Assembly: GCA_024707015.1 (NCBI GenBank)
Contig: JANGFR010000002.1
Span: forward strand, 74,007-138,006
DNA length: 64,000 bases
Source of the DNA: Candidatus Culexarchaeum yellowstonense
GTDB taxonomy: Archaea; Thermoproteota; Methanomethylicia; Culexarchaeales; Culexarchaeaceae
Direction of reading: 5' to 3'
Shown here: positions 44,629 through 60,568 of the stretch, piece after piece
Layout: every line of letters begins with the position of its first letter
How positions within the stretch are numbered: the first letter of the stretch is position 1
The notes under the pieces: generated by a model
The model's database searches: none
Told to the model about the DNA's origin: nothing
Seen by the model: only the letters and a program-made list of their open reading frames with translations
Made by a program: the position numbers and the translations under genes

Positions 44629-46247
44629 CCCTTAAATGCTAGATTCTTAAATTCATCACCACTCAAAGTCCACTGCTCCCCCCTCTTGGAATCAACTATC
44701 ATTACACGATCTGTGCATGAGAAGCATGGGTCAACGCTACCAATAATTATTGGTGCATCTGCAAGTCTACAACCTTTAAGCATGAATTTGAGGGCTGCAA
44801 TATTACGGTAACTTGGAGTTCTAATCCTAACAGTGTGCGGTATATCCATACCATTCGAAATTACGTAGTAGACTAGTTCACCCCTAGGAGCTTCAACCTT
44901 ACTTAAAGCTTCACCCTCAGGGAATGGTTTAAGTTCTGAAGTAGCTACTGGTCCACCAATACTCTTCAACCTATCAACACATTGTAGACATATATCTATG
45001 GATACAAGGGTTTCCTTAACTCTAACCATAACCCTTGAAAGTACATCCCCAGCCTCCTCAACCACAACATCCCAACTTATATGCCCCTCATCATAGAATG
45101 AGTATGGACTATCCCTTCTAACATCAATCTTCCATCCACTAGCCCTAGCAGTTGGCCCTACAGCTCCAGCCTCCCTAGCATCACTTAGAGACATGACACC
45201 TACACCCTCAGTCCTACGCCTAACAATGCTATGTGAAGCTATATCTTCAGCTAGTTTTTTGAAATCCCTCTTAACTTCAAGCAGTTTACTTTCAACTTTA
45301 CTAAGCTGCTCCTTAGTGACATCGAATCTTACGCCGCCAATACTCATGGAATCTGCATGAACCCTATTGCCCGATAGCAATTCAATGCAATCCTGTATTG
45401 GCTCCCTAATCTTCCAAGCCCACATGAGCAAAGTTTTAAAGCCAATCAAGTCTCCTGCAACGCCAAGCCATAGGAGGTGACTATGTATCCTATTCAACTC
45501 AGCCATTAAAACCCTAATATACTCAGCCCTCTCAGGGACATTTACCCCAAGAATGCGTTCCACAGCATTCACGAAAGCCAATTGATGCGGAACACTACAT
45601 ATACCACATATCCTACCAACAAGGAATAGGTCACGCCAAAAAGTCCTACTCTCAGCCAACTTCATTATCCCACGATGATTCAAACCAACCTTAATATCCA
45701 CATCAACAACATCTTCACCATCAACGAATAACTTGAAGAATCCACCTTCAAGCATTGCCGGATGATATGGACCTATGGGTAGAGTGACTTGCTTAACCCC
45801 AGCCTTAGATTCACTGGAACTCTCAACTGGGTTAGGCCACTCAAAGGGGAGGAAGATGTGTCTAGGGTCGGGGTGACCATCAAACTCAACTCCAAGGAGC
45901 TCCATAGTCTCCCTCTCAGCCCAATTAGCTTGATAAGTCAATTGTGCAACTGATGGAAACTTCGCTGGTTCACCATCACCATAAGCATACAATATTACAT
46001 GGGCATGTCTATCTATGTGTTCAAGACTGTAGATGTGCATGAGCCTAATACCATCAAAACCCATGTCTGAAGCTGTGACATGGACAATTCTAGAGCCTAT
46101 GGAAAGCATGTATTTAGCTGCATCCAGAAGCCTATTTGGACTGGTCTTAACACGTACATGCTTACCTCCACAACCATAACCAGTAATTTCAAAATCGGGT
46201 TTAAGGATGTTTCCAAGCTCATTTAAAACATCATTTAAACTCTTCAT
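44616..46247 (-). CDS. [NiFe] hydrogenase large subunit, group 4, fused NuoC-like + NuoD-like (HycE/EchE/MbhL-type)
   Basis: N-terminal NuoC-like domain (about 150 aa), then RICGICSVPH (RxCGxCx3H Ni/Fe-binding motif L1) and C-terminal DPCFSCTDR (DPCxxCxxR/H motif L2). All four metal-ligand Cys are present. 543 aa. Confidence 0.85.
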   Translation of the reverse strand: MKSLNDVLNELGNILKPDFEITGYGCGGKHVRVKTSPNRLLDAAKYMLSIGSRIVHVTASDMGFDGIRLMHIYSLEHIDRHAHVILYAYGDGEPAKFPSVAQLTYQANWAERETMELLGVEFDGHPDPRHIFLPFEWPNPVESSSESKAGVKQVTLPIGPYHPAMLEGGFFKLFVDGEDVVDVDIKVGLNHRGIMKLAESRTFWRDLFLVGRICGICSVPHQLAFVNAVERILGVNVPERAEYIRVLMAELNRIHSHLLWLGVAGDLIGFKTLLMWAWKIREPIQDCIELLSGNRVHADSMSIGGVRFDVTKEQLSKVESKLLEVKRDFKKLAEDIASHSIVRRRTEGVGVMSLSDAREAGAVGPTARASGWKIDVRRDSPYSFYDEGHISWDVVVEEAGDVLSRVMVRVKETLVSIDICLQCVDRLKSIGGPVATSELKPFPEGEALSKVEAPRGELVYYVISNGMDIPHTVRIRTPSYRNIAALKFMLKGCRLADAPIIIGSVDPCFSCTDRVMIVDSKRGEQWTLSGDEFKNLAFKGWRG

Positions 46248-46253
46248 CCCAGA

Positions 46254-47777
46254 TCACCATAAATCCATAAATTTAAACATAACATCATTATGGAGGGATA
46301 CTCCATAGGCTAGAAAGCCATGATACATTATACCAATTATAATTGATATTAAAGCTAAGAGGATTATGGAGGTAAACATTAAATCTGGTTTCTCCCTAAA
46401 AACGCCACTACCCCTAGCTGAAGCCACAACTATTCCGAGGAAAACACATAAAACTATTATACCACTGAGATATATTAAACCCTCATATATTGAGCTTGGA
46501 ATACCATAAAACTGATTGCCAGAATAAATGATTGATTCCATCACCATATGCTTACCATAATAACCTGAGAAGAATGGAAGTAAACCTGAAACGCTCATCC
46601 CACCTAAAATAATGATGAGTGAAGTGATGGGCATAGACCTAGTTGCCATTGAAAGTTTAAGCCAATTCCTCTCATGGAAAACCTTCACATACAAACCTGC
46701 AGATAGGAAGAGGAGTGCCTTAGCAATTGAATGTGCAAATAGGTATAATGCTGATCCAAAAATGCATAGATATGCTTCATAACCACTCATGGAAACACTT
46801 AAACCAATTGATGAACCTAGGAACCCCATACTCAAAATGCTACTGAAGGCTATAACCCTCTTAATATCCCTATCAATTATCATCCCCAACACTCCAAGGA
46901 CAATATTAATTAAACCTGAAAGGGTTATGAAAGCCCCCACATCCATTGAAATTATTGGTGAAAGTGAATAAACGTATTTCAATATTGGGATATATGCAGA
47001 CTCTATTATTACACCTGAAAGCATTGCACTAACTGGTGAAGGTGCTTCCGAGTGAACTAATGGGAGCCATAGGAGTGCAAGTGGAGATGTGCCAGCCTTA
47101 ATTCCAAAACCTAAAAGGATTAGGTAGGAGGCAAATTTGAAATTCCAATCATAAATCCCATATCTACTCAACCTATAAACATCCAGTAGATCGAAGTGTA
47201 AACCATAACCATTGATGAGGAGGCATACCCCAATTATTATTAGAATAGACTCTAAAATCGACATGGCCAAGTATACTATAACTGAAATAACAGCTCTACC
47301 CCTACGTTCACCATACAAAACTAGAATTGCACTCAGAGCTGTGGAAGCTTCAAGAAAAAATAGCATGTAAATCAAATTGCTAGATGACACCAGCCCAATT
47401 AGTGTCGCTAATAGAATTGGTATAATTGCAAAGTACAATCTAAATCTACCATTCAATTCAGAATCGAAATATTTGATTGAGTATAATGTTGATATTAAAC
47501 CAACAATCAATATAACCTCACACATAGCATAAATAAGGAAATCCGTAAACAATTTTGATTCCAGCTCAGCTAACCCAGCTGCTAATATTCCTGCTAATGG
47601 TATGGCGTTAACAATTAATGAGGAGAATATCAATAATGTGGAGAGGTGTATGGAATATTTTGATTTAAATGCTGAAATTATTAGCGATGATAAGAATAGA
47701 AGTGCATATGTCAATATGAGGTTAATGCTCACCCTTCTCATCCTCCATGAATGGTAGATTAAATATGTAGATTTCAT
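46254..47777 (-). CDS. NuoL/M/N-type (Mrp antiporter-like) membrane subunit of the hydrogenase (EchA/HyfB/MbhH-like)
   Basis: 507 aa with about 14 TM helices and conserved antiporter-like charged residues in the membrane. The start is possibly the internal Met (MRRVSINLIL). Confidence 0.75.
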   Translation of the reverse strand: MKSTYLIYHSWRMRRVSINLILTYALLFLSSLIISAFKSKYSIHLSTLLIFSSLIVNAIPLAGILAAGLAELESKLFTDFLIYAMCEVILIVGLISTLYSIKYFDSELNGRFRLYFAIIPILLATLIGLVSSSNLIYMLFFLEASTALSAILVLYGERRGRAVISVIVYLAMSILESILIIIGVCLLINGYGLHFDLLDVYRLSRYGIYDWNFKFASYLILLGFGIKAGTSPLALLWLPLVHSEAPSPVSAMLSGVIIESAYIPILKYVYSLSPIISMDVGAFITLSGLINIVLGVLGMIIDRDIKRVIAFSSILSMGFLGSSIGLSVSMSGYEAYLCIFGSALYLFAHSIAKALLFLSAGLYVKVFHERNWLKLSMATRSMPITSLIIILGGMSVSGLLPFFSGYYGKHMVMESIIYSGNQFYGIPSSIYEGLIYLSGIIVLCVFLGIVVASARGSGVFREKPDLMFTSIILLALISIIIGIMYHGFLAYGVSLHNDVMFKFMDLW

Positions 47778-48015
47778 CCATATGGATGTATGGAGGTTTA
47801 GCTAAACCACACATGAAAACTGAATCCAAATCTACATTACGTGATTGAAGCCATGGAATTAAAACTATGAATGTCAAATAGAATATTGAAGTTGAAGCTA
47901 ACTCAACTAGGAATAATGTTAGAATGATATCTGATGTTAAGGGTACAATCCAAAATCCAATGGCCAACAATCCTAACGATATTATTAGGGGGATGTACAT
48001 GTACTTCAACTTCAT
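47722..48015 (-). CDS. Small membrane protein within the hydrogenase operon
   Basis: 97 aa with 2-3 TM helices. Overlaps the NuoB-like gene by 4 nt and its 3' end overlaps the annotated start of the NuoL-like ORF. Confidence 0.35.
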   Translation of the reverse strand: MKLKYMYIPLIISLGLLAIGFWIVPLTSDIILTLFLVELASTSIFYLTFIVLIPWLQSRNVDLDSVFMCGLAKPPYIHMDEIYIFNLPFMEDEKGEH

Positions 48016-48464
48016 TTAACCACCCCACACCTCTCACGTAGGATGCTTATTGCCTTAACAACACCATTTATTATGGCTTCAGGTTTTGGTGGGCATCCAG
48101 ATACAAAGACATCCACTGGGATAACCTTATCTGCTCCACCAAGGATTGCATAAGTTTCTTCACCCTCAACATCATTGAATATTCCACCAGAACAGGCACA
48201 TGAGCCTATGGCGACAACAACCTTTGGGTTTGGAACTTGCATATAAACTCTCTTCATGAATGATGCAATATGCTTTGTAACTGGACCTGTAACTATTAGG
48301 ATGTCTGCATGCCTTGGAGATGTAACCAATTTAATCCCAAATCTCTCAACATCAAATCTTGGGGTTAATGCTGCAACAAGTTCAATGTCGCATCCATTAC
48401 ATCCACCAGCATGTAAATGGTAAACCCATGGTGAATATGTGAACATCTTCTGTTTAAACCCCAT
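48012..48464 (-). CDS. [NiFe] hydrogenase small subunit, group 4 (NuoB/EchC/MbhJ-like)
   Basis: Cys ligands for the proximal [4Fe-4S] in GGCNGCDIE, GSCACSGG and C-P (SGCPPKP). 150 aa. Its start codon abuts the stop of the upstream HdrB-like gene. Confidence 0.85.
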   Translation of the reverse strand: MGFKQKMFTYSPWVYHLHAGGCNGCDIELVAALTPRFDVERFGIKLVTSPRHADILIVTGPVTKHIASFMKRVYMQVPNPKVVVAIGSCACSGGIFNDVEGEETYAILGGADKVIPVDVFVSGCPPKPEAIINGVVKAISILRERCGVVK

Positions 48465-49328
48465 TTAACCCACCAACCTACCAATTATATTTTCAGTTGA
48501 AATTGCATGTGTATTTAAGCCGAAACTTTCTGGCTTAATTCCAAAACTTAAAGCTAAGAGTTCACTTAAATGTAACACTGGAATCCCATATTCTAATCCT
48601 TCATCTTTGAATGTCAATTGGGCTTTCTCAAATTGATCGTAGCATGCTGGGCATGCAACTACAATTGCATTTGCACCTGAATTCTTTATGGCATCAAGCT
48701 TCCACTTAGTCCTCTCCCTCATAGCCTTATCCACCGAGTATAGCATTAATGGGTATCCACAGCAAACACGCTCCAAACCATAATCAACGATCTCAACATT
48801 CAAAGCCTTCACAATTTCCCTAAGATACTTGGCGCCCCTCTCATCACTCATCTTATATAATTTGCATCCTGGGTGAAGTGCAACTTTAAGCCAACTTAAA
48901 TCCACATTAACATTGCTTCTAATAGCATTTAAACCAACATCTTCAAACAATACTTCAGTATAATGTTTAACTTTAATAGTCCCATTAAATTTCAATCCAA
49001 ACCCCTTAAGATTCCCATTAATCTTCTCCCTCAAATCACTTGACTCAATAAGCTTCTCCCTAGCTTCATGCAGAGACTCCCAACACCCATTACACATCAC
49101 AATTATATCCCTCCCAATAGCTTCAGCTAAGGATAGGTTTCTAGCAGCCACAGTTAACCATAAATCTTCATCTACAAGTCTAGCTATTTCTGGAACTGGG
49201 CAGCATGAAGCTCCATTTATATCGAGGAGGTTGATTCCAAGTTTACTGGATATGGCTCTCATGGATGATTCAGCAAATGGCTGCATTGCAGGTATATAGC
49301 ATCCTAGGAATAGACTGTATTCAAGCAT
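48465..49328 (-). CDS. CCG-domain (Cys-rich) protein, HdrB/HdrD-C/GlpC/Sulfolobus-SdhC-like
   Basis: Two Cys-rich repeats: C...CCP...CNGC and C...CCG...CPAC (287 aa). The first has CCP instead of CCG. Confidence 0.75.
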   Translation of the reverse strand: MLEYSLFLGCYIPAMQPFAESSMRAISSKLGINLLDINGASCCPVPEIARLVDEDLWLTVAARNLSLAEAIGRDIIVMCNGCWESLHEAREKLIESSDLREKINGNLKGFGLKFNGTIKVKHYTEVLFEDVGLNAIRSNVNVDLSWLKVALHPGCKLYKMSDERGAKYLREIVKALNVEIVDYGLERVCCGYPLMLYSVDKAMRERTKWKLDAIKNSGANAIVVACPACYDQFEKAQLTFKDEGLEYGIPVLHLSELLALSFGIKPESFGLNTHAISTENIIGRLVG

Positions 49329-49343
49329 ATGGATACCTCCAAC

Positions 49344-49622
49344 CTAATATTTGAAATCCCTCCTATCAAAGTCAAATCCAATCCTTCTACCAGCACCAAT
49401 CGATTTAATGAGATTGAACATTTGATTCACATATTCAGTGTTGCTATATGCTGTTGGGGGTATGCTTGGCAAACCAATCCTACTCCTAGTCCTCTGCATA
49501 TATCTAGAAAGCATTGGAACATGACCAGTTCTAAGTATACTCCTAATTGGAGATTTAAGTGAATCCTGCAATCCCACAATATCCTTCCTTAATGGGTGAA
49601 TTTTACCTTCGCTGGAGCTCAT
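49344..49622 (-). CDS. Small basic protein of unknown function inside the Hdr/hydrogenase operon
   Basis: 92 aa, Cys-free, Arg-rich. Overlaps the upstream polyferredoxin gene by 4 nt and has a 15-nt gap to the downstream gene. Confidence 0.3.
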   Translation of the reverse strand: MSSSEGKIHPLRKDIVGLQDSLKSPIRSILRTGHVPMLSRYMQRTRSRIGLPSIPPTAYSNTEYVNQMFNLIKSIGAGRRIGFDFDRRDFKY

Positions 49623-50104
49623 GATCTCACCCTCTCCAAAACCTCCCTCCTAGGTAATACTTGAAGTGCACCAGTACTACAATACTTTGCACATAGAAAT
49701 TCACCTTTACATGCATCGCATTTAACGCTAACCCTCAACCTCTCATCGAAAAAAGGTATTGAGATGGGGCATGCATAATTACAGCTTCTACAACCAATAC
49801 ATAGAGCTGGATTTATGAGTACAAATCCTGTTACAGTATCCTTACTTATAGCTTTAGGTTCCACTGGACATGCAGCCATACAAAATGGGTCTTGACAATG
49901 ACTGCAGTAGTTGTTTATGAAGAGTGGATTCCCCTCAGGGTTCAATGCCACCATCAAGTATGCCTTCGAAATATCAATTACCCCATAATGCTTGTATGAG
50001 CAAACCTCCATGCAATATAGGCATCCTGAACATTTATTTGGATCGTAGAAGAGCACTTTCTGTTCCTCTAAATTCAAGGTGCATGCCCCACAACAATTTT
50101 TCAC
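49619..50104 (-). CDS. Polyferredoxin, 4x[4Fe-4S] (HycB/DmsB/HdrC-like electron-transfer subunit)
   Basis: Four CxxCxxCx3C-type motifs: CSGCLYCMEVC, CSHCQDPFCMAACP, CIGCRSCNYACP and CDACKGEFLCAKYC. 161 aa. Confidence 0.8.
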   Translation of the reverse strand: MKNCCGACTLNLEEQKVLFYDPNKCSGCLYCMEVCSYKHYGVIDISKAYLMVALNPEGNPLFINNYCSHCQDPFCMAACPVEPKAISKDTVTGFVLINPALCIGCRSCNYACPISIPFFDERLRVSVKCDACKGEFLCAKYCSTGALQVLPRREVLERVRS

Positions 50105-50502
50105 TGCTGATACTTAGAGTACTCCTCGGCAGTTAAAAGTTCATCCTTCTCCTCTTCCCACTTTGTTGGTTGAATTATAACTAGCCATCCAGCTCCATAT
50201 GGATCTGCATTAACAAGTGATGGCTGCTTTAAAACCCTCTCATTAACCTGCTTTATAACACCACTAACTGGGGATATAAGGTCGCTGGTGGCTTTAGTGG
50301 ACTCTATAACTCCGAATGGCTCGTACTGTGAAACTGTTGTGCCAACATTCTCTAATCTAATTCTCCTAACGGTCTTCAGCATCTTTTGTGCATAATCTGT
50401 TATCCCAACCCTAACGGTTCCATCGGGCAGAAGTTCAGCCCATGTATGGTCTGGAATGTAATATATGCCTTCACGCAAAACATAACTCTTACTCATACCC
50501 AC
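50101..50502 (-). CDS. Glycine-cleavage H-protein-like lipoyl-carrier protein (GcvH/LbpA-like)
   Basis: HTWAEL...VRVGITDYAQKML...ESTKATSDLISPVSGVI...NADPYGAGW reproduces the GcvH fold motifs (HxW, GITDxAQ, ESVKAxSDxxxPxSG, NxDPYGxGW), with the lipoyl-Lys in ESTKA. 133 aa. No gcvT or gcvP nearby. Confidence 0.75.
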   Translation of the reverse strand: MGMSKSYVLREGIYYIPDHTWAELLPDGTVRVGITDYAQKMLKTVRRIRLENVGTTVSQYEPFGVIESTKATSDLISPVSGVIKQVNERVLKQPSLVNADPYGAGWLVIIQPTKWEEEKDELLTAEEYSKYQQ

Positions 50503-50593
50503 ACACCTGGCAAAATAAGATTATACTTGATTTCTTAAATAGTTTACCATAAGCCAGCAAAGTGAAATATAGGTTGATTTAAAAAAATGTGGT

Positions 50594-52270
50594 TTAAATT
50601 GGGAATATTGGTATGGCTTTGGATAGAACCTTTTCCCCTCTATATTCTGGTAGTAGCATTGGTGCACGCCTATCCTTTGGAGCGCCGATCTTCTCAAGCT
50701 CTTCAACATATCTTGGTATGTGATTCAATGTTAGCTTCCCTGGGCTAGCACCACTCTTAACATATTTTGCAGCTGAAATGCCAGCTCTCCTACCATAGAC
50801 TTGGGTGTCTAGCAGTGAGTTGCCCATAAGTCTATTCTTCCCATGAACCCCACTTGTAACCTCCCCAGCTGCGAAGAAACCTTCAATTATTCCATTGGCA
50901 TCTAAAACCTGTCCATACTTGTTTATACATACGCCGCCATTCATGTAGTGTAATGTTGGGAAGACGAGTATAGGCTCTTTTGTGACATCTATACCGAACC
51001 TTGCATACATCCTATATACTGAGGATAGATACCTCTTAGTGGCGCCTTCTCCTCTAACAATGTCCACCATTGGAGTATCAAGCCAAACCCCCCTAACCCC
51101 AGTCGGCGTAACTATACCCTTGTTTCTACCATAGCATTCCCTTATTATTGCCGCTGAGACAGCATCTCTAGTTTCGAGTGGATATACGAATTGTTCACCA
51201 TCAATGTTAACTAGCTGTGCACCCATGGATCTAACTTTCTCAGTTATGAGCAATCCAAGTATCTGATCTGGGTACGCTGCACCTGTTGGATGGTATTGTG
51301 TGGCGTCTAGATCCCTTAGCTTTGCCCCAACCCTATAAGCTAGGACTACTCCATCCATTGTGGCTCCATAGTGATTTGTGGTTGGGAAGTTTTGTATGTG
51401 TAGTCTACCATAACCTCCAGTGGCTAAGACTACGGCTTTAGCTCTAGCAACATAATACTCCTTTGTCTCCATATTCCATAGTATTGCACCTGTAACTCTA
51501 TTTCCAGAATCATCTGTTAGCAATTCTATTGCTGGAGAAAATTCCAGTATGCGTATCCCCCTATTCAATACTTCATCCATCAATACACGCATGATTTCAA
51601 GTCCAGTGTAATCTTTGCATGAGTGCATCCTATTCCTAGATGTACCTCCACCTGAAACTTCAATCATCGTTCCATCGGGCTCCTTATCGAACATGACGCC
51701 TAAATCTTCAAGCCACTTTATTATGAATGGGGCATCCCTGACAAGCTCCCTAACGAGCTCAGGGTCATTTGTGTACTGTCCACCACCCATAATGTCTAGG
51801 AAGTGTCTTGCAGGGCTATCATTCGGTCTATCTGCAGCCTGTATACCTCCTTGAGCCATCTTGGTATTTGCATCCCCAAACCTAAGCTTTGTGGCTATGA
51901 GAATGTTCTCTGCAGGTATACCCTCAATGTTAGCCCATAATGCTGCAGAAGCCCCTGCACCTCCACCTCCAATCACAAGTATATCTACATCGTAATCTAT
52001 CTTGCTCAAATCTATATCCTTTGGATCTATTAGTGGATAGGCTTCAATGAGGTTTGCAACTTCATGTGGAACCATTAATCCAGCACTTGGGCCAATCTTT
52101 ATAGGCCTCTTAGTCCCCTCCTTATAATCTGGATGCCAAGTTTTGAGGAGCTCCATCTTCTCATCTGGGCTAAGCCGTCTATACCTCTCCTTAAGCCTCC
52201 TCTCCCTAGTCTCCTCCACAATCTTAATGTATTCCCTCATGTAATCTGGATACCCAATCTTCTGAGACAT
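50594..52270 (-). CDS. FAD flavoprotein of the fumarate reductase/succinate dehydrogenase/L-aspartate oxidase superfamily (non-covalent-FAD type)
   Basis: DVDILVIGGGGAGASAA dinucleotide fold and HPTG active-site motif. C-terminal RLMGNSLLDTQVYGRRAG. The covalent-FAD histidine position reads ANTKMAQGG (K, not H), as in NadB and TfrA. An unusual ~90-aa N-terminal extension precedes the FAD fold. 558 aa. Confidence 0.8.
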   Translation of the reverse strand: MSQKIGYPDYMREYIKIVEETRERRLKERYRRLSPDEKMELLKTWHPDYKEGTKRPIKIGPSAGLMVPHEVANLIEAYPLIDPKDIDLSKIDYDVDILVIGGGGAGASAALWANIEGIPAENILIATKLRFGDANTKMAQGGIQAADRPNDSPARHFLDIMGGGQYTNDPELVRELVRDAPFIIKWLEDLGVMFDKEPDGTMIEVSGGGTSRNRMHSCKDYTGLEIMRVLMDEVLNRGIRILEFSPAIELLTDDSGNRVTGAILWNMETKEYYVARAKAVVLATGGYGRLHIQNFPTTNHYGATMDGVVLAYRVGAKLRDLDATQYHPTGAAYPDQILGLLITEKVRSMGAQLVNIDGEQFVYPLETRDAVSAAIIRECYGRNKGIVTPTGVRGVWLDTPMVDIVRGEGATKRYLSSVYRMYARFGIDVTKEPILVFPTLHYMNGGVCINKYGQVLDANGIIEGFFAAGEVTSGVHGKNRLMGNSLLDTQVYGRRAGISAAKYVKSGASPGKLTLNHIPRYVEELEKIGAPKDRRAPMLLPEYRGEKVLSKAIPIFPI

Positions 52271-52273
52271 AAC

Positions 52274-52981
52274 CTATCCCTCCGGACTTTCAATATCCCT
52301 ACTATCATACAACTTCTTCAGTTCAGCAGAGCTCATTTTAACCAGCTTATCAAGTTCCATATCAAATTTCCCCTCCTCTATCTCCTTAACCCTAATTTCA
52401 AGATGCTTGGCTTTTGGAGCCATATATTTGCCATAGAGCCTCCTAACCAACTGAAATACGTGATAATGGATTATTTCAGCTGGACATCTAATGCTACATA
52501 ATCCACATGAAATGCAGTCAAAGCATAACTCAGCGGCTTTGGCTATATCCCCCCTCTTAATCATCTGTATTGCATCCATAACCTGCAATTCCTGTGGGCA
52601 TGCCTTAGTACAAGAATTGCATGCAACACATCTAGCTACTTCGGGATATAATGCCAATACATTTGCACCTGTAGGCTTTAACTCCTCAATATTATACTTA
52701 ACCTTCTCCGCTGGTGCAAAGGGTATTTGAACAAGGTACATTCCATCTTGAACTGTTGTTTGGCATGCTAGAGCTGTGTAGAGCCTATAATCCCCCTTAA
52801 GCCTATATATCGTTGCACATGCACCGCAGAATCCACCCCTACAACCAGCACCCCTAATATACTGGTATCCAGCATACTCAACAGCCTTCATTATAGTTAT
52901 CCCAGCAGGAACTTCATACTCCTTACCCATAATGTATATTTTCACGGTCCTCTTAGGTTCAGTTTGACCCGCCATGTTCAT
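52274..52981 (-). CDS. Iron-sulfur subunit, SdhB/FrdB-like (2Fe-2S plus 2x[4Fe-4S]-type Cys clusters)
   Basis: Plant-ferredoxin-like CRGGFCGAC...C, then CVACNSCTKACP and CFDCISCGLCSIRCP. 235 aa. Overlaps the downstream HdrB gene by 4 nt. Confidence 0.75.
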   Translation of the reverse strand: MNMAGQTEPKRTVKIYIMGKEYEVPAGITIMKAVEYAGYQYIRGAGCRGGFCGACATIYRLKGDYRLYTALACQTTVQDGMYLVQIPFAPAEKVKYNIEELKPTGANVLALYPEVARCVACNSCTKACPQELQVMDAIQMIKRGDIAKAAELCFDCISCGLCSIRCPAEIIHYHVFQLVRRLYGKYMAPKAKHLEIRVKEIEEGKFDMELDKLVKMSSAELKKLYDSRDIESPEG

Positions 52982-53832
52982 CCACCACCAATTTTACTCT
53001 TAAAGATTGAAAGGGTTTCTTGGGATAGTTTTTCGTCGAGGCCCATGGCATAAGCCATCAACTCAGTGAAATATAGTGTTGGTATATTAAATTTGTTTCT
53101 AACGATATTTAAGTTGTAATGGCAAAGTGGACATGCAGTTATTATCATATCTGCACCCCACCTCCCAGCAGCCCTAACTATCTCCCCAACAGTCCTCTCA
53201 ACCATACTCCTATCATAAACCACATTATAAGAACCACAACACCTCTTCTCATATGGGAATTTAATGGGCTTAGCGCCTAAACTGGAGATCAAATCTGATA
53301 GTATGTGTGGATCTTCAGGGTCATCTATACCAATACCCCTTGGTCTAAGTAGTGAACAACTATAGAATGGTGCAACCTTTAATTTGCTTAAATCCCTCTT
53401 AACAGCCTCCCTAACCCTCTTTAAACCTATGATATTATCATCCAATATTATTTCAAGCACATGCTTAACATCCACACCACAATTATATCTAGGCTCATCA
53501 TCCATGTACTTACTTAGATTGTCAAGCTTCTCAGGATCACTTGTAACGATCTCATTAACCTTCTTCAATGTGCTATAACACATGGAGCATAGGGTTATAA
53601 GCCTATTATCCCCAACCTTACCCATAAACTCCTGAGCCCTTACAAGATCCCTCAGTGGAGCAACATGCTGCATAACTGCATCAGCAGAATACTCATACAT
53701 CACACCACAGCAATTCCATCTATCCAGCTCCACAAGCTCCACATCAAAAAGCTTCAAAACTGCAATGGCGGAATCCTCATAGCTTTTAGCGTAATCCTTA
53801 ACTGAGCAGCCAGGGTAATACATGAACTTCAA
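52978..53832 (-). CDS. hdrB: Heterodisulfide reductase subunit B (two CCG domains)
   Basis: PGCSV...CCG...CSMC and C...CCGSY...CPLC give two full Cx(n)CCGx(n)CxxC repeats. 284 aa. Confidence 0.8.
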   Translation of the reverse strand: MKFMYYPGCSVKDYAKSYEDSAIAVLKLFDVELVELDRWNCCGVMYEYSADAVMQHVAPLRDLVRAQEFMGKVGDNRLITLCSMCYSTLKKVNEIVTSDPEKLDNLSKYMDDEPRYNCGVDVKHVLEIILDDNIIGLKRVREAVKRDLSKLKVAPFYSCSLLRPRGIGIDDPEDPHILSDLISSLGAKPIKFPYEKRCCGSYNVVYDRSMVERTVGEIVRAAGRWGADMIITACPLCHYNLNIVRNKFNIPTLYFTELMAYAMGLDEKLSQETLSIFKSKIGGG

Positions 53833-53838
53833 CCACGA

Positions 53839-54210
53839 TCACCCCGTAAGCTTCCTTGAAGCTGATATCAGAGCTATTTGAGGTAAATCCCCAAGCCCCT
53901 TAACCCTCCTCAAATCCACTGGATAAATGTTTTTACGTTGAACAATGGTTCTAAGGACATTTATCATTCTAGCTGGATCTATATCCCTCGGACACCTAAC
54001 ACTACAAGTATTACATGAAGCACAAACCCAAATGGTCTTGCAATTCAAAACCTCAGGCATATCGAGTTGAATCATCCTTATAACTTGATGTGGAGGAACA
54101 TCCATATCCTTAATCATTGGACAGCTACCACTACAAATACCACATTGAATACATAGGTATGGATTCTTCCCACTCAACTCATAAACAGTTTGAGGTAAAC
54201 CTCTAAACAT
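53839..54210 (-). CDS. hdrC: Heterodisulfide reductase subunit C (2x[4Fe-4S])
   Basis: CIQCGICSGSCP and CASCNTCSVRCP with the HdrC-type C-terminal extension. 123 aa. Confidence 0.8.
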   Translation of the reverse strand: MFRGLPQTVYELSGKNPYLCIQCGICSGSCPMIKDMDVPPHQVIRMIQLDMPEVLNCKTIWVCASCNTCSVRCPRDIDPARMINVLRTIVQRKNIYPVDLRRVKGLGDLPQIALISASRKLTG

Positions 54211-54221
54211 GACTACACCCC

Positions 54222-56612
54222 CTAAACCTTAATCCTCCCCCTATCCTCAACACTCAATGGGCCAAGCTTCTCCACAATGGATACAAGATCACCTAAATCC
54301 TTCACAAGCCTCTCAGCCATATCGACGGCTATGGTGTCAAATTTAAGCCTCCTAGCATCAATCCTATATTTCCTCATCTGGGATCTAGCCTCCCTAATAA
54401 CATCGTTAATTACATCTAAAACTTTGGGATGATATGGCGATGCCCCCTCAAGGCAGTCTCCAATGAAAACTCCATCAGCACCATACTTGAATGCACTCAA
54501 TATTATTTTTGGTGTAAGTCTACTTGCACTTGGAACAGTTATAACCCTAACCCTATTATCATAGGTAAGCCTACTGGTACCTGCAAGATCTGCAGCCCTA
54601 TAAGTGCAGGAGTCATCGAAGAATGCTATAACTCTAATTTCACCATCCCTCTTACTCTTAAGAGCCCCCTCAATCTGGCTTAAAATTTGCTTCTCACTGT
54701 AATGCTTCAATTCAATAGCCCCCCTTGGGCAGTATGGTATGCAACTTCCACAACCAACACATAGAGCTTCACTAATATGCGCCTTACCATCCACCATACT
54801 TATAGCCCCCAGCGGACACTTATCAACACATACTCCACAACCATTACATAATTCAGCAATTACATAGGCTTTTATTGGCTCTATAAGTATCCTACCCTGA
54901 CTTATGAGTCTAAGAGTTCTCCCAGCAGCTGCACTGGCCTGAGCCACACTATCAGCTATATCCTTAGGTCCCTGTGCACACCCACATATGAAAACCCCCT
55001 CCCTAAGCGTATCCACAGGCCTATACTTCGGGTGAGCTTCAAGGAGGAATCCATCTGGACCTATATTCAACTTGAGCTTCTTAGCCAACTCCTCAACACC
55101 ACGTGATGGAACTAGACCCACAGATAAAACCACAAGATCAAATTCATCTTCAATAAATCTTCCAGTCAACGTATCTTCAGCCCTAACTATAACCCTACCA
55201 CTCACGGGATCCTCAATGACCTCACTAACCTTCCCCCTAACGAATTTAACACCCAAATCCTGTGCCCTCATATAGTATTCTTCAAACCCCTTACCATAAG
55301 CTCTAATATCAATGTAGAATAAGGTTATATCCCTAGTTACATCTTGCCTCTTCAACGTCATAGCCTGCTTAATAGTGTACATGCAACAAACCCTCGAACA
55401 TCCAGGTCTACCAATCTGCTCATCCCTAGAACCCACACAATGTATGAATGCAATCTTCCGGGCAAGTTGACCATCAGATAACCTAATAACCTTACCACCA
55501 GTTGGGCCTACTGGCATAACCATCCTCTCCAATTGTGGCGCTATTATAACATTCTTGTATACTCCGTAACCGTACTGTTTAAGTTTAGTTGCATCGAAGG
55601 GCTCATAGCCAGTGGCAACGATTATTGCATCCACAACAATATCCAATATCCTCTCCTTATCATCGAAGTTTATAGCCTTCTGTGGGCAAACCCTCTCACA
55701 AACCCTACATATCCCCTTAGTTAAGTATAGGCAGGATTTTGGGTCTATGAGATACTTGTATGGAACAGCCATTTCATGTGGAACGTATATTGCCCTCCTA
55801 TTCCTAAGGCCATAATTGAATTCATCTGGCGCAGATGCAGGGCATTTTGATGCACATATCCCACAAGCAACACATTTACTCATATCAACATATCTCGGTT
55901 TAACCTTAACCTTAACATGGAAATCACCCACACTCCCACTAACATCCTCAACTTCACTGTAAGTCAATAATGTAATGTTTGGATGATTATACACTGCAGC
56001 CATTTTTGGTGAGAGTATACAGAGGGAGCAGTCGTCAGTTGGGAATGTGTAGCTTAACTGAGCCATCCTACCCCCAATTGCGGGTTCCTTCTCAACCAAG
56101 TAAACTTTACAACCAGAATCAGCCAAATCCAATGCAGCCTGAATCCCAGCTATGCCAGCACCAATAACCATAACCCTATTCCCAACCTTAACCTCCCTCG
56201 CCTTCAGAGGTTCATTAAGATTAACTTTACCAATAGCAGCCATTATCTGATCAATGGCTCTTCTGGTAGCCCCATCTGGATCGTTGGAGTGAACCCATGA
56301 ATCCTGCTCCCTAATATTAACCATCTCAAACAAGTATGGGTTTAAACCAGAATCCTCGAGGAGCTTCATGAATGTTGGACCGTGAAATTTTGGGGAACAA
56401 GCTGCAATGATAACCCTATTCAAATTATATCGTTTAATATCCTCCCTAATCTCCCTCTGACCAGCCTCAGAACATACATGCTCATTATCCTTAACTAGAA
56501 CAACACCATCAACACCGCTAATGGCCTTCAAAACCTCATTTATCCTAACGACATTGGATATATTTCCACCACAATGACAAACATAGACACCAATCCTAGC
56601 ATCATTAGCCAT
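54222..56612 (-). CDS. hdrA: Heterodisulfide reductase subunit A with a C-terminal MvhD-like domain fusion
   Basis: N-terminal VYVCHCGGNIS (HdrA N-domain), FAD-binding VIGAGIAGIQAALDLADSG, inserted ferredoxin motifs (CVACGICASKCP, CRVCERVCP), a C-terminal 2x[4Fe-4S] domain (CNGCGVCVDKCP / CVGCGSCIPYCP), then an MvhD-like tail (FFDDSCTY...FKYGADGVFIGDCLEG). 796 aa. Confidence 0.85.
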   Translation of the reverse strand: MANDARIGVYVCHCGGNISNVVRINEVLKAISGVDGVVLVKDNEHVCSEAGQREIREDIKRYNLNRVIIAACSPKFHGPTFMKLLEDSGLNPYLFEMVNIREQDSWVHSNDPDGATRRAIDQIMAAIGKVNLNEPLKAREVKVGNRVMVIGAGIAGIQAALDLADSGCKVYLVEKEPAIGGRMAQLSYTFPTDDCSLCILSPKMAAVYNHPNITLLTYSEVEDVSGSVGDFHVKVKVKPRYVDMSKCVACGICASKCPASAPDEFNYGLRNRRAIYVPHEMAVPYKYLIDPKSCLYLTKGICRVCERVCPQKAINFDDKERILDIVVDAIIVATGYEPFDATKLKQYGYGVYKNVIIAPQLERMVMPVGPTGGKVIRLSDGQLARKIAFIHCVGSRDEQIGRPGCSRVCCMYTIKQAMTLKRQDVTRDITLFYIDIRAYGKGFEEYYMRAQDLGVKFVRGKVSEVIEDPVSGRVIVRAEDTLTGRFIEDEFDLVVLSVGLVPSRGVEELAKKLKLNIGPDGFLLEAHPKYRPVDTLREGVFICGCAQGPKDIADSVAQASAAAGRTLRLISQGRILIEPIKAYVIAELCNGCGVCVDKCPLGAISMVDGKAHISEALCVGCGSCIPYCPRGAIELKHYSEKQILSQIEGALKSKRDGEIRVIAFFDDSCTYRAADLAGTSRLTYDNRVRVITVPSASRLTPKIILSAFKYGADGVFIGDCLEGASPYHPKVLDVINDVIREARSQMRKYRIDARRLKFDTIAVDMAERLVKDLGDLVSIVEKLGPLSVEDRGRIKV

Positions 56613-56729: not shown

Positions 56730-57227
56730 ATGAAGTGTGAATTTATGGAGGTAGCAATATTCGATTTAGATGGAGTAATAGCGAATGTAAGTGGGAGAAT
56801 TGAAAAAGCTCTAAGGGAGCTTGGCAAGGAAAACTTAAAGGAACTCTCAAGGAAAGATAGAAGGAGATTTTGGGAAATATTCCTAAACCCAGAACTACTG
56901 GAGCTGGATAAACCTAGAATGGATATTATAGATTACATGAGGAAGATTAAGGATAAGGGATTAAGGATAATCATAGTAACTGGAAGGACAATTAAACAGA
57001 AGAACGAAACTTTAAAGCAATTGAGCTCTTGGGGGGTTCCATACGATGAAATATACTTTAGGATGGCGGGGGACTTGAGGAAGGATTCCATCTACAAGAG
57101 GGAAGTGGTGAAGCTACTGCTAAGGAGGGGGTATAATATAGTGGAAGTGTGGGAGGATAGCGATGAAGTCATAAGAGAATTAAGAAAACTAATTCCAGAT
57201 GCGAAAATAGTAAAAGTTGAAAACTAA
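56730..57227 (+). CDS. HAD-superfamily phosphatase-like protein
   Basis: AIFDLDGVIA (HAD motif I, DxDG), IIVTGR (motif II-like) and a late acidic motif (VWEDSDE). The likely start is the internal Met (MEVAIFD). 165 aa. Confidence 0.5.
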   Translation: MKCEFMEVAIFDLDGVIANVSGRIEKALRELGKENLKELSRKDRRRFWEIFLNPELLELDKPRMDIIDYMRKIKDKGLRIIIVTGRTIKQKNETLKQLSSWGVPYDEIYFRMAGDLRKDSIYKREVVKLLLRRGYNIVEVWEDSDEVIRELRKLIPDAKIVKVEN

Positions 57228-57237
57228 ATTATGATAT

Positions 57238-58314
57238 GTGGATGATAATATGGATATAATAAGGTTAGGGGATGTGGAAAAATATGTTTATGGTGGAGCA
57301 GTCCTAGGTGGAGGCGGTGGAGGAAGCATAGAGGAGGGGGTTAAAATAGGTAGACTTGCAACACAAATATCGCCAATAAAACTTTTGAATGTAGATGAAA
57401 TGCGTGCCGAAGAAAATTTAGTAACAATATCAATGGTGGGAGTACAATCAAAGGGGGTTATACTACCATACCACCACATACGCATAATAGAGCTCATGAA
57501 AATGTTCAATGTGAATGTTGATGGATTAATTGGAAGCGAATGTGGAGCCACAGCAGTAACACATGGATGGATACAAGCAGCAGTATATGGGAAACCTGTA
57601 ATAGACTGCCCATGTGATGGGAGGGCACACCCCACTGGGGTTATGGGTGCCATGGGGCTACATAAAATAAGGAACTATAGAACGGTGCAAGCAGCATGTG
57701 GAGGCGAAGAGAATTTGGAGATAATTGTTAGTGGCAGTATAGAGGCAACTAGCAGAATCATTAGGCAATTCTCCATGGAAGCTGGTGGATGCGTAGCTGT
57801 AGCAAGAAACCCAGTAAAAGTGGATTATGCAAAGAGGAATGGAGCTCCAGGAGCATTAAAACAAGCTTACAAAATAGGTGAAGCAATATTATCAGTGGAT
57901 AAACCTGAAGATAGAATTGAATCTGCAACGAAGACATTAAATGGGAAGATTATCTGTAGAGGTGAAGTTAGGGGGAAGAGAATGGAAGTTGAAGGTGGAT
58001 TCGATGTTGGATACATAGAAGTTGTGGATGAGGGAAATGAGCTATACAAAGTGGCATTCGTAAATGAATACATGAGTGTACATAAATGGGATGAAACAGT
58101 AACAACATTCCCAAACCTAATAAACGTATTCAGCCTAAAAACAGGGCTACCACTAAACTCAGCTGAAGTAAAACTTGAAGAACCAGTAGCCATAACAGTT
58201 GCAGATAAGAATGCAATAAAGATTGGTGAAGGATTAAGGGATAGAAAACTATATGAACCAATAAAAAGGATTATGAAGAATAAACTAAACTTAGAATTGG
58301 AATTCAAAATATAA
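57238..58314 (+). CDS. Hypothetical protein, possibly DUF917-like
   Basis: 358 aa, soluble, Gly-rich N-terminus (GGAVLGGGGGGS). Family assignment is tentative. Confidence 0.4.
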   Translation: MDDNMDIIRLGDVEKYVYGGAVLGGGGGGSIEEGVKIGRLATQISPIKLLNVDEMRAEENLVTISMVGVQSKGVILPYHHIRIIELMKMFNVNVDGLIGSECGATAVTHGWIQAAVYGKPVIDCPCDGRAHPTGVMGAMGLHKIRNYRTVQAACGGEENLEIIVSGSIEATSRIIRQFSMEAGGCVAVARNPVKVDYAKRNGAPGALKQAYKIGEAILSVDKPEDRIESATKTLNGKIICRGEVRGKRMEVEGGFDVGYIEVVDEGNELYKVAFVNEYMSVHKWDETVTTFPNLINVFSLKTGLPLNSAEVKLEEPVAITVADKNAIKIGEGLRDRKLYEPIKRIMKNKLNLELEFKI

Positions 58315-58342: not shown

Positions 58343-59062
58343 TTATTTTTTGACCTTCTTGTAGTAGTCGTATCCTAGTAGTGTGGCTAATAGTAGTAGT
58401 GCAACCCATGGGAAGAACATCTTGTTTTCAGGCGCATATGGAGGTATACCTAGTAAGAACTGTGCTCTACCAATGAACATGGACATTCTTGTTAGTACTG
58501 TGTATCCGTATGCTGAGCCGAAGCCTATCATCATGGCATATCTAGCAAACTTGTTAATAGGCTTCCAGAAGGCAGCTTCCTGCTTTAATGTGAAAGTGAA
58601 GTATAATAAGACGCAGATCACAATGGCGGCTGTAACTAGATTGTTGAATGCAGTCCAAGGATCCACACCAATGAAGGTCAATCCAGCTGTAGCGCTAACC
58701 TGTCTAATAAGCTGAGCAAAGACTATGGTTCTCAAAGCCAATCCGATACCAGTACCAACGACGACGGCCAATGCAATTCTGTAGAGCCAGAAGAATCTCT
58801 TAGAGAATCTGAAATACCATAATACACTTACGAGTAATGCAAGTATGAAAGCAGCTGTACCGCTGGTGGTCGTTGACCATGTGCCCTCCCATTGACTCCT
58901 CAGCCAATCCAAGGAGTATGCAATATCATATCCAGTGGCTGTTCCTATGAAGACGTATTCAGCTAATCTAGACCATGGATTCTCCTTGTATAGGAATGTG
59001 TAAACTGCAAGTGTGAAGAATACTCCGCAGAATGCTGCAAATAGTGTGGTTATGTCTGTCAT
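58343..59062 (-). CDS. Integral membrane protein (unknown function), last gene of a four-gene membrane operon
   Basis: 239 aa with about 7 TM helices. Overlaps the upstream gene by 4 nt. Confidence 0.45.
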   Translation of the reverse strand: MTDITTLFAAFCGVFFTLAVYTFLYKENPWSRLAEYVFIGTATGYDIAYSLDWLRSQWEGTWSTTTSGTAAFILALLVSVLWYFRFSKRFFWLYRIALAVVVGTGIGLALRTIVFAQLIRQVSATAGLTFIGVDPWTAFNNLVTAAIVICVLLYFTFTLKQEAAFWKPINKFARYAMMIGFGSAYGYTVLTRMSMFIGRAQFLLGIPPYAPENKMFFPWVALLLLATLLGYDYYKKVKK

Positions 59063-59919: not shown

Positions 59920-60568
59920 CCCTCAAATAGCCCCTCTCATAACCAGTTAACGTTCTAATACCCAGAACTATGGCTCCGAGGGCAGCCCCAATTATGATTG
60001 ATCTCTGAACAGCCATATTGGGAACGTTGAAAAGCCAATCACCAAGACTTGAGACTTGAGGTACTAGGAATGTTCCCAGAGGGGCATTCCTAAACACCAG
60101 TATTGACCCAGCAATCAATAGTAATGCAGCTTCAAGGGATCTAGCCTTAAAAGCTCTATAAGCAGCTGAAGCTATGAAGAATGCTAACATAGCATATAGG
60201 CTGCTATCCAATGGTGTTAAGACATTGTTTGTTAGGAAATTGAATATATCGTTATTCATTCCGAGACCCCACTCCCAAATTGGCAAACCAACTATCATCA
60301 TCACGAACATTAAGATTAATAGGATTAAACTATACTCCCAGTATTGGCGTCTTTTAACGACTCTTGGAGCATGAACTAAGATTATGGAGATTGCACCTAC
60401 AAACAGAGCCCCAGTAGCTACAACCATCTCCCAATTCACAGCATTATCCATGAAGCTCTCAACATCTGGACCCAAAGTGAAGAAGTATGGGATTATCTGT
60501 ATCAATGCACATATAACTGTTACTGCTATTGGAATTTCAACACGTTTATACCATGCCAACCCAAACAC
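59906..60568 (-). CDS. Integral membrane protein (unknown function)
   Basis: 220 aa with about 6 TM helices. Overlaps the downstream gene by 14 nt. Confidence 0.45.
   Translation of the reverse strand: MFGLAWYKRVEIPIAVTVICALIQIIPYFFTLGPDVESFMDNAVNWEMVVATGALFVGAISIILVHAPRVVKRRQYWEYSLILLILMFVMMIVGLPIWEWGLGMNNDIFNFLTNNVLTPLDSSLYAMLAFFIASAAYRAFKARSLEAALLLIAGSILVFRNAPLGTFLVPQVSSLGDWLFNVPNMAVQRSIIIGAALGAIVLGIRTLTGYERGYLRGGGT

Follow-up and report, generated by a model that had tools for sequence, protein, structure and literature searches.

A predicted Hdr-linked soluble fumarate reductase operon in Candidatus Culexarchaeum yellowstonense and its relatives

We analyzed a 64,000-nucleotide stretch of the Candidatus Culexarchaeum yellowstonense genome (the window), in which five consecutive minus-strand genes, in the order hdrA2-hdrC-hdrB-FeS-flavoprotein, occupy positions 50594-56612. 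On balance, the sequences and gene neighborhoods considered below make it probable that these genes encode a soluble cytoplasmic fumarate reductase that receives its electrons from an HdrA-based module, probably an electron-bifurcating one. The parts of this reading should be considered separately, as fumarate reductase chemistry is likely, physical coupling to the Hdr proteins is reasonably probable and flavin-based bifurcation is a tentative proposal. An earlier note on this DNA had described only the last three genes, comparing them to thiol:fumarate reductase and to type-E succinate dehydrogenase, and had raised the possibility that the flavoprotein doubles as an L-aspartate oxidase.

Operon organization

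The genes of the operon, and the gap that follows them, are listed here.

50594-52270, minus strand: flavoprotein, the predicted catalytic subunit; 558 residues, PF00890 (FAD_binding_2) at residues 96-486 (E = 2e-71, 242 bits)
52274-52981, minus strand: Fe-S subunit of the predicted reductase; 235 residues, Pfam Fer2_4 (11-82) and Fer4_9/17 (114-170)
52978-53832, minus strand: HdrB-like CCG-domain protein; 284 residues, PF02754 twice
53839-54210, minus strand: HdrC-like 2x[4Fe-4S] protein; 123 residues, TIGR03290 (HdrC) at 68 bits, Fer4_17 and Fer4_8
54222-56612, minus strand: hdrA2-type HdrA with a fused MvhD (FlpD) domain; 796 residues, NF040770 at 970 bits over the full length
50503-50593, minus strand: intergenic gap, a probable operon boundary, with a T7 run after the flavoprotein stop codon and TATA-like boxes before gcvH

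The order was read from the open reading frame (ORF) list of the window. Spacing is tight, with gaps of 11 (hdrA/hdrC), 6 and 3 nucleotides, while the hdrB and Fe-S genes share 4 nucleotides; the ATG of the flavoprotein gene lies 3 nucleotides past the stop codon of the Fe-S gene. hdrA comes first and is preceded, approximately 50 nucleotides upstream, by the TATA-like sequence TTATAAA. As the flavoprotein stop codon is followed by the T7 run and the TATA-like boxes, we infer that the five genes form a single transcription unit, with the terminator and promoter roles of these elements being assigned from archaeal consensus features. The three ORFs at 50594-53832 are on the minus strand exactly where the earlier note had placed them. 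What did not hold was their description as a complete trio, since they are the tail of a five-gene Hdr-linked operon that also includes hdrA2 and hdrC.

Gene context across genomes

In a collection with one genome per species, at least 599 relatives of the flavoprotein were confirmed, and the best 80 were taken with their flanks. Among the matches listed, relatives at 55-70% identity span Asgard, Bathyarchaeia, Thermoplasmata, Clostridia, Chloroflexota, WOR-3 and other lineages, and Sporomusa rhizae and Clostridium estertheticum are cultured members. Approximate context counts were obtained for 85 non-identical loci, over 10 kb, using a greedy ORF picker and clusters named by Pfam.

The Fe-S gene lies directly upstream of the flavoprotein gene, on the same strand, in 75 of the 85 loci, and at least one Hdr gene is found within 10 kb in 65. 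HdrC is present in 49 loci, and the full order HdrC-HdrB-FeS-flavoprotein in 38. The core across the family, the Fe-S/flavoprotein pair, usually preceded by HdrC-HdrB, is nearly invariant, and it is the electron-input genes that vary, being Mvh, Flx-like or none (MvhA/MvhG input module, 19/85; FlxABC-like NAD(P)H input module, 13/85). For example, the order 2-oxoacid:ferredoxin oxidoreductase (OFOR)-HdrA-MvhD-MvhG-MvhA-protease-HdrC-HdrB-FeS-flavoprotein occurs in Thermococci, Asgard and Thermoplasmata, the order OFOR-HdrA-HdrC-HdrB-FeS-flavoprotein-HdrD-like-Idh in Acetothermia, and the order HdrB-HdrC-HdrA-MvhD-FlxCBA-FeS-flavoprotein in Sporomusa and Clostridium.

Metabolic genes recur next to this core. 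The OFOR beta subunit was found in 23 of the 85 loci, class I fumarate hydratase alpha (PF05681) and beta (PF05683) in 22 and 20, respectively, malic enzyme in 13, the succinyl-CoA synthetase subunit SucC in seven, glutamate dehydrogenase in five and isocitrate dehydrogenase in two; at least one of OFOR, fumarase, malic enzyme, SucC, glutamate dehydrogenase or isocitrate dehydrogenase is present in 56. As enzymes of the malate-fumarate-succinate-succinyl-CoA-2-oxoglutarate branch are thus neighbors of the family, fumarate is the substrate that the gene context suggests.

The flavoprotein active site and the direction of the reaction

In the flavoprotein, a family-specific N-terminal extension (residues 1-95) precedes the FAD and capping domains (96-507), and these are followed by a short tail at the C terminus. 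Every sequence motif quoted in the earlier note is present in the translation, namely GGGGAG (101-106), DANTKMAQGG (133-142), HPTG (327-330), GNSLLD (483-488) and RRAG (494-497). The invariant catalytic and hinge residues are His327, Thr329, Glu344, Arg347, Arg368, His441 and Arg480; T343 is also present, and the dicarboxylate and hinge residues as a whole are invariant or nearly so. The dicarboxylate site, where fumarate is bound and protonated, is made of two His/Arg pairs, H327, R368, H441 and R480, all of them invariant. When the AlphaFold model of the flavoprotein was searched with Foldseek, the best match was Escherichia coli FrdA (1kf6, E = 5e-32), followed by fumarate reductases and succinate dehydrogenase flavoproteins, and NadB was absent from the top 50 matches. 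The PF00890 fold, the dicarboxylate residues and this top match together place the protein in the fumarate reductase/succinate dehydrogenase superfamily, as had been proposed.

In HMMER alignments to Mycobacterium SdhA, 7d6v and 6lum, Asn135 aligns with the histidine to which FAD is covalently linked. The replacement of this histidine, already pointed out in the earlier note, is invariant in 43 family members, and, judged from this residue, the flavoprotein must bind FAD non-covalently. Homologues with non-covalent FAD reduce fumarate but cannot oxidize succinate, their flavin potential being 90-150 mV lower and, as such, too low for the oxidation (PMC9557727). Reduction is therefore favored over succinate oxidation as the direction of the predicted reaction.

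This point bears directly on the proposal, made for Culexarchaeia, that the enzyme is an oxidative succinate dehydrogenase that passes electrons from succinate to Hdr, to the Ehe hydrogenase and finally to protons. The hydrogenase does adjoin the reductase, which fits such a chain. Nonetheless, apart from the invariant asparagine, the potential of succinate (+30 mV) makes it much too weak an electron source for HdrA-type chemistry or for reducing protons unless a large amount of energy is supplied, and the input modules that accompany the family oxidize H2 or NADH, which fits a reductive role. We thus regard succinate oxidation as very unlikely.

Family placement of the flavoprotein

None of the curated family thresholds among the NCBIfam models is passed by the flavoprotein. 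The best-scoring model is TfrA (NF004900, 320.6 bits against a cut-off of 718), followed by sdhA/frdA (288 against 567) and NadB (TIGR00551, 270.8 against 452.75); the remaining NadB models among the best 25 families listed all score far below their cut-offs.

The relatives were also considered as a library clustered at 50% identity, in which nearly all full-length family members fall under one representative. Next in the library are extension-bearing relatives, then short forms of 400 residues, then TfrA-like, Sdh1-like, SdhA and NadB proteins. In a neighbor-joining tree of the core, which is small, distance-based and contains one NadB and one SdhA anchor, such that it gives a coarse placement only, the flavoprotein lies in a clade with 100% bootstrap support inside the extension-bearing group, and the split between this clade and the branch holding the NadB anchor, the SdhA anchor and the TfrA-like and Sdh1-like proteins has 62-76% support. 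The FAD-linking site holds Asn across the extension-bearing group and His in SdhA, the Sdh1-like proteins and two TfrA-like representatives. These two representatives, P0203 and P0207, reach 511 and 625 bits with the TfrA model (cut-off 718). As they keep the linking-site histidine, the non-covalent arrangement that the earlier note assigned to TfrA may not be valid for all TfrA-type proteins. The short forms P0153, P0154 and P0168 (approximately 400-413 residues) are minimal sister flavoproteins with neither the extension nor the C-terminal domain; they keep the His/Arg/His/Arg site and carry Asn or Lys at the FAD-linking position.

The terminal regions of the flavoprotein

The earlier note had described an N-terminal extension of about 90 residues, while allowing that it might result from a wrongly assigned start codon. 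The extension is real and comprises 95 residues. Homologues at 55-88% identity align from residues 1-7 onwards with 99-100% coverage, and the 120 best homologues, from Methanomethylicia, Culexarchaeia, Njordarchaeales, other Asgard, Thermoplasmata, Bathyarchaeia, Thermococci and Acetothermia, show 97-100% query coverage at 64-88% identity, bar one truncated partial sequence. Hundreds of genomes carry the extension in conserved form along its entire length. Across 118 aligned members, column conservation averages 0.69 in residues 1-95, compared to 0.81 in the core and 0.68 in the final 53 residues, and invariant positions of the extension include R22, R25, E37, H46-P47-D48, K54-R55 and G60. More distant relatives, at 43-49% identity, retain its HP(D/N) motif. 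AlphaFold models the extension as three helices and two short strands at a confidence (pLDDT) of approximately 90, the overall value being 84. In addition, one library representative, P0122 (727 residues), naturally joins the Fe-S protein, the extension and the FAD fold, in that order, in a single chain, and is 49% identical to the flavoprotein of the window over residues 33-540. A start-codon artefact is ruled out by the full-length conservation, the model confidence, the 3-nucleotide spacing to the Fe-S stop codon and the P0122 fusion. P0122 could also serve as a ready construct for structural study of the subunit interface.

Neither the extension nor the C-terminal tail matched any known Pfam domain at E values up to 10, and the extension alone found no match among PDB sequences. 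At the other end of the protein, the curated models align only to approximately position 410 of their 490-570 positions (TfrA, positions 6-407 of 546; NadB, 3-387 of 489), and 51 residues remain. The flavoprotein therefore lacks the C-terminal helical domain common to SdhA, FrdA, TfrA and NadB; of the full SdhA/FrdA/NadB fold stated in the earlier note, the FAD_binding_2 fold is present and the C-terminal helical domain is absent. The C-terminal tail that is found instead has low model confidence yet carries invariant residues (P537, L540-P541 and Y543-R544), a pattern that seems typical of a segment that becomes ordered only in a complex.

L-aspartate oxidase as an alternative

The nadA (22933-23841) and nadC (22071-22970) genes of the window form an overlapping pair and, as the earlier note stated, have no nadB next to them; nadX is likewise not adjacent. 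It had therefore been suggested that the flavoprotein serves, as its main or second job, as an L-aspartate oxidase that feeds iminoaspartate to NadA. In favor of such a role, FAD binding is predicted to be non-covalent, as in NadB, although the same is true of soluble fumarate reductases and the trait does not discriminate; the NadB model does give a score of 271 bits; and NadB shares catalytic residues with fumarate reductases and can take fumarate as an acceptor (PMC10249383). That score is, however, below both the cut-off of 453 and the TfrA and sdhA/frdA scores. Residues specific to NadB are also missing. Glu121, the catalytic base of NadB that takes the amino-group proton and is a neutral residue in succinate dehydrogenases and fumarate reductases (PMC10249383), aligns (using 5kxj) with Gly207, and Ser389 aligns with Gly483; both glycines are invariant in 43 members, while P0225, a representative classified as NadB, has Glu at the Glu121 site. 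In the neighbor-joining tree, used here as the phylogenetic check for a canonical NadB placement, the flavoprotein is outside the branch with the one NadB anchor. An obligate Fe-S partner and an Hdr context are seen in 65-75 of the 85 loci, the gene is translationally coupled to the Fe-S gene, and it is located 27 kb from nadA, in a different operon. NadB, for its part, is a stand-alone enzyme, and its gene usually accompanies nadA/nadC. No NAD-pathway gene was identified among the recurrent neighbor families, noting that the loci were not searched for nadA or nadC. As for the missing nadB, a separate nadB or aspartate dehydrogenase may exist in the rest of the genome, outside the search. The model score, the Glu121 and Ser389 sites, the tree and the gene context together led us to reject a NadB identity, and an aspartate oxidase activity of any extent is most improbable.

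A class I/II aminotransferase gene (23965-25110) and a Thi4-family thiazole synthase gene (25155-25934) are divergent from nadA/nadC.

The Fe-S subunit and the Hdr proteins

The Fe-S protein comprises an N-terminal 2Fe-2S ferredoxin domain, with a C-x4-C-x2-C...C motif, followed by an HdrC/SdhB-type helical 2x[4Fe-4S] domain with two C-x2-C-x2-C-x3-CP motifs, each ferredoxin motif having four cysteines. Its identity across phyla is 62-74%, and residues 19-83 correspond to positions 18-82 in the TfrB model. To call this protein SdhB-like, as had been done, is correct for its domain order and not for its family membership, as the SdhB model TIGR00384 gives 30.5 bits against a cut-off of 88. SdhB itself carries 2Fe-2S, 4Fe-4S and 3Fe-4S clusters. 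Foldseek with the AlphaFold model of the protein (pLDDT 85) returned domain-level matches only, to RnfC, NuoG and HdrC, with SdhB ranking 29-36 (E ~1e-3). We also considered CdhA, that is, a carbon monoxide dehydrogenase (CODH) subunit, as the identity of the protein, and rejected it: with only 235 residues, it scores 41 bits to the cdhA model (cut-off 781) at positions 394-457 of 784, and the match is limited to the ferredoxin-like dicluster stretch.

Of the Hdr proteins, HdrA2 reaches 970 bits to NF040770 (cut-off 1100) and contains FlpD at residues 661-784 and several Fer4 domains. HdrB aligns over its full length with methanogen HdrB (7bkb_B, E = 1e-29), and the earlier description of a CCG-domain HdrB is fully borne out by its two CCG domains with all ten cysteines. 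These cysteines, which make up two noncubane-cluster motifs, are conserved in 43-44 of 44 orthologues that adjoin an Fe-S/flavoprotein pair. HdrB (125 bits against 345) and HdrC (68 against 160) both fall short of the equivalog cut-offs set for the methanogen proteins. The HdrB-like protein also reaches 113 bits with the MFR SdhE model (cut-off 500), and it is preceded by HdrC and HdrA, not being part of an SdhABEF set; no SdhC or SdhD genes are found at the locus. The comparison to a type-E succinate dehydrogenase did not hold, given the Asn at the covalent-FAD site and the SdhB model score.

Comparison with known and published systems

Hdr-coupled two-subunit fumarate reductases, with the same mechanism as that favored below, have been proposed before, for Pseudoclostridium thermosuccinogenes (PMC7282089) and for tubeworm symbionts (PMC6315080), and a review from 2026 still treats them as a hypothesis (PMC13147460). 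The former bacterium, a succinate producer, has a 'succinate operon' that combines fumarase with seven Flx-Hdr genes and with a fumarate reductase encoded by two genes (PMC7282089), while Endoriftia and Thioflavicoccus have korABCD-tfrAB-flxABCD-hdrABC (PMC6315080). The window shares with the P. thermosuccinogenes/Endoriftia class two paired genes, located beside hdrABC, that encode a small Fe-S protein and a fumarate reductase-type flavoprotein, and other genomes of the window family share the linkage to fumarase and 2-oxoglutarate:ferredoxin oxidoreductase. The window differs in that its HdrA is an HdrA2 with a fused MvhD and the operon contains no Flx or Mvh input genes, and in that its neighbors are a membrane-bound hydrogenase with its own HdrB and GcvH, rather than TCA genes.

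In Culexarchaeia, Kohtz et al. (2022) described an Ehe hydrogenase with HdrBC that is co-located with 'SdhA', 'CdhA', HdrA2B2C2 and GcvH, and suggested succinate or CO oxidation, or GcvH serving as a disulfide carrier (PMC9723716). The window has the same gene set and order, including the antiporter subunit, and its flavoprotein is 94% identical to that of Candidatus Culexarchaeum nevadense. Our reading departs from the published one on two points. Firstly, 'CdhA' is the 235-residue Fe-S subunit, with no CODH catalytic domain, so that CO oxidation by the Ehe cluster would be left without a catalytic subunit. Secondly, non-covalent FAD binding argues for fumarate reduction, not succinate oxidation.

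Of the curated models, the methanogen thiol:fumarate reductase TfrAB is the closest to the flavoprotein, and the 2Fe-2S, 2x[4Fe-4S] and two CCG units of TfrB correspond to the Fe-S protein and the HdrC-/HdrB-type proteins of the window. TfrAB is likewise soluble, anabolic and part of a reductive branch of the tricarboxylic acid (TCA) cycle. The two nonetheless differ in several respects: the last ~140 positions of the TfrA model are unmatched by the flavoprotein, TfrA lacks the 95-residue extension, the TfrB functions are found on separate proteins in the window, where the operon also contains HdrA, and the flavoprotein family has Asn where the two TfrA-like representatives, themselves below the model cut-off, have the linking-site His. 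To the TfrB model NF004898 (cut-off 385), the Fe-S protein, HdrB and HdrC score only 35, 37 and 22 bits. The earlier proposal of a TfrAB-like soluble fumarate reductase is largely right, as it stands for domain content and best curated model and falls short on the TfrA and TfrB equivalog scores.

With MvhADG-HdrABC and HdrA2B2C2, the operon shares HdrA, HdrC and HdrB proteins that align over their full length with the solved methanogen subunits and a complete set of CCG cysteines, and archaeal operons of the family carry inserted MvhADG genes. It differs from them in that none of its three Hdr proteins reaches the equivalog cut-off of the methanogen counterpart, in its additional Fe-S and flavoprotein subunits, and in a host lineage that has been reported to lack coenzyme M (CoM) and coenzyme B (CoB) biosynthesis.

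A further parallel is found in QmoABC-AprAB of sulfate reducers, where an Hdr-like module passes electrons to a small ferredoxin-like subunit and on to a fumarate reductase-superfamily flavoprotein that binds FAD non-covalently; in that system, the substrate is different and QmoC is membrane-bound. AprA itself is only a remote relative of the flavoprotein in the PDB search (E = 4e-6, against 1e-59 for SdhA), and identities of the AprA or PAPS-reductase type (the latter with E = 2e-7) were rejected on the basis of these values.

Proposed electron path and evidence to the contrary

According to the reading that we favor, the flavoprotein and the 235-residue Fe-S protein would form a two-subunit fumarate reductase, made together with HdrA2 (with its fused MvhD), HdrC and HdrB. 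Electrons would enter at HdrA, the presumed bifurcating FAD subunit, and move on via HdrC and HdrB to the Fe-S subunit, where they would travel along its 2x[4Fe-4S] and 2Fe-2S clusters, from there to the non-covalent FAD and finally to fumarate, yielding succinate. The transfer from HdrB could be direct or could involve a thiol/disulfide that is turned over at the CCG clusters, as in TfrAB. Fumarate (~+30 mV) would replace CoM-S-S-CoB, a heterodisulfide, as the high-potential acceptor for the HdrA flavin, which would drive the second electron to ferredoxin in a flavin-based bifurcation. The extension and the C-terminal LLP-x-YRG tail probably substitute for the lost helical domain and dock the Fe-S and Hdr partners.

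Several considerations weigh against this proposal. The substrate, the partners and bifurcation are all deduced from sequences and gene neighborhoods, and our literature searches found no family member that had been purified or assayed. The context counts are approximate, being derived from short contigs with a simple ORF picker, and represent minimum values wherever a contig is cut short. Some loci, for example in WOR-3 and in several unclassified bacterial metagenome-assembled genomes, contain fumarase with the Fe-S/flavoprotein pair but no Hdr, such that Hdr coupling is not obligatory. In the window itself, a tblastn search of the 64 kb found no fumarase, OFOR, SucCD or other TCA-branch gene, and, with neither Mvh nor Flx genes in the operon, HdrA2 has no obvious electron-donor module. 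The TEGxRGEGG loop of the canonical enzymes reads TEKVRSMGA in the flavoprotein. Finally, the P. thermosuccinogenes and Endoriftia enzymes appear to belong to the family by gene order only, and P. thermosuccinogenes was not among the top 120 matches of a homology search started from a Clostridium member.

Two of these points, the altered loop and the lack of a fumarase gene in the window, would also fit a reductase with the same fold and Hdr wiring but with a different substrate, either unsaturated or dicarboxylic, for which mesaconate, itaconate-type acids or some other 2-enoate would be examples. The separate clade with its own extension and the curated model scores, all far below their cut-offs, can be read in the same manner, and superfamily members such as urocanate reductase, found among the PDB matches, do use other substrates. 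Yet, both His/Arg pairs that hold the fumarate carboxylates are invariant; class I fumarate hydratase, malic enzyme, SucCD and OFOR are among the recurrent neighbors; and a succinate-producing Clostridium has this operon type as an annotated fumarate reductase (PMC7282089). A different substrate therefore seems improbable to us, and fumarate is preferred.

The adjoining GcvH and hydrogenase genes

A neighboring unit, of which gcvH is the first gene, follows the operon on the same strand.

50101-50502, minus strand: GcvH-type lipoyl carrier protein; 133 residues, PF01597 E = 4e-35, PRK01202 at 134 bits against a cut-off of 117
43044-50104, minus strand: polyferredoxin (161 residues), HdrC C-terminal fragment (92 residues), second HdrB (287 residues) and group-4 [NiFe] hydrogenase

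The Ehe cluster is a membrane-bound group-4 [NiFe] hydrogenase with NuoB-, NuoD-, NuoH- and NuoL-like subunits and an antiporter-like subunit; the NiFe motifs of the large subunit read RICGICS and DPCFSCTDR, and the second HdrB scores 250 bits to TIGR03288. Across the family, this cluster is a neighbor of the reductase and not a part of it. HdrC appears to be split at 49344-50104 (minus strand), where the gene of the 161-residue DmsB-type polyferredoxin shares 4 nucleotides with that of the 92-residue protein, the sole match of which lies in the C-terminal region of HdrC (positions 85-138 of 144, 22 bits); loci L006 and L009 contain this pair as well.

These genes raise the possibility of a true thiol:fumarate reductase that uses a protein-bound dithiol, with the HdrB of the operon oxidizing dihydrolipoyl-GcvH and the Ehe-attached HdrB re-reducing it with H2. 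GcvH would then take the role that CoM-SH and CoB-SH have for the methanogen TfrAB and Hdr. Indeed, gcvH begins 91 nucleotides downstream of the flavoprotein gene and is followed by the second HdrC/HdrB and the hydrogenase, an order that loci L006 and L009 repeat. The lipoyl-lysine motif ESTKATSD of GcvH is intact, genes for LplB and a LipS2 lipoyl synthase, both above their NCBIfam cut-offs, lie on the same strand approximately 3 kb past the hydrogenase, and HdrB retains both noncubane-cluster motifs. Lipoate-binding proteins, moreover, serve sHdr systems in sulfur oxidizers. Culexarchaeia have been reported to lack full CoM/CoB biosynthesis, and GcvH was suggested as their disulfide carrier (PMC9723716).

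Set against this are the rarity of the arrangement, as GcvH adjoins the reductase in only 3 of the 85 loci, all from the Culexarchaeia/Methanomethylicia lineage, and the oligo-T run and TATA-like boxes between the two units, which therefore look separately transcribed. Culexarchaeia also encode a glycine cleavage system that needs GcvH (PMC9723716), and the protein scores as an ordinary GcvH. We consider a lipoyl-dependent thiol:fumarate reductase unlikely. We know of no methanogen-type Hdr enzyme that acts on lipoyl proteins. We would likewise give a small chance to the wider idea of a quinone-free, cytochrome-free H2:fumarate respiratory chain in which lipoyl-GcvH is a protein-bound heterodisulfide instead of CoM-S-S-CoB. 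If such a chain exists, the Ehe hydrogenase and its own HdrB would reduce lipoyl-GcvH with H2 while moving ions, and the soluble HdrA2-HdrC-HdrB-FeS-flavoprotein complex would re-oxidize it, reducing fumarate and possibly ferredoxin.

The lipoylation genes at 38996-40279 (minus strand) encode LplB (92 residues, 69 bits against 65), followed by the LipS2-type radical-SAM lipoyl synthase (331 residues, 365 bits against 270). The pair is also found downstream of the hydrogenase in L006, and recalls the sets of lipoate-binding proteins and sHdr of sulfur oxidizers.

Genes upstream of the operon

Just upstream of the hdr operon, four consecutive genes occupy 58343-61366 on the minus strand. The first encodes a DUF6754 protein (289 bits) and the other three encode hydrophobic proteins with no Pfam or NCBIfam match. 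The same four families adjoin the Fe-S/flavoprotein pair, in divergent orientation and with no Hdr, in three bacterial loci, the set being listed for L006, L033, L034 and L041; they may represent a membrane partner or a transporter linked to the reductase. Between this set and hdrA, two opposing genes on the plus strand (56730-58314) encode a small HAD-type phosphatase and a 358-residue protein that resembles thiohydantoin desulfurase (~230 bits, with cut-offs of 440-450). A HAD-type phosphatase is also found just upstream of hdrA in L006.

Implications

For annotation, the outcome is that the 'SdhA' and 'CdhA' of the published Culexarchaeia cluster are more aptly described as a fumarate reductase's two subunits, and that the NadB idea is dropped. 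The class of enzyme is itself widespread and has been predicted in print, including for the Culexarchaeia lineage. As cultured bacteria carry members of the family, the prediction of fumarate reductase activity can be tested directly. If the proposal is correct, the large energy drop of fumarate reduction would be converted into reduced ferredoxin for anaerobes, and this ferredoxin could drive the 2-oxoglutarate synthase that is encoded in the same cluster. The reductive TCA branch would thereby become cheaper, and fumarate would join the few high-potential acceptors used in HdrA-type bifurcation.

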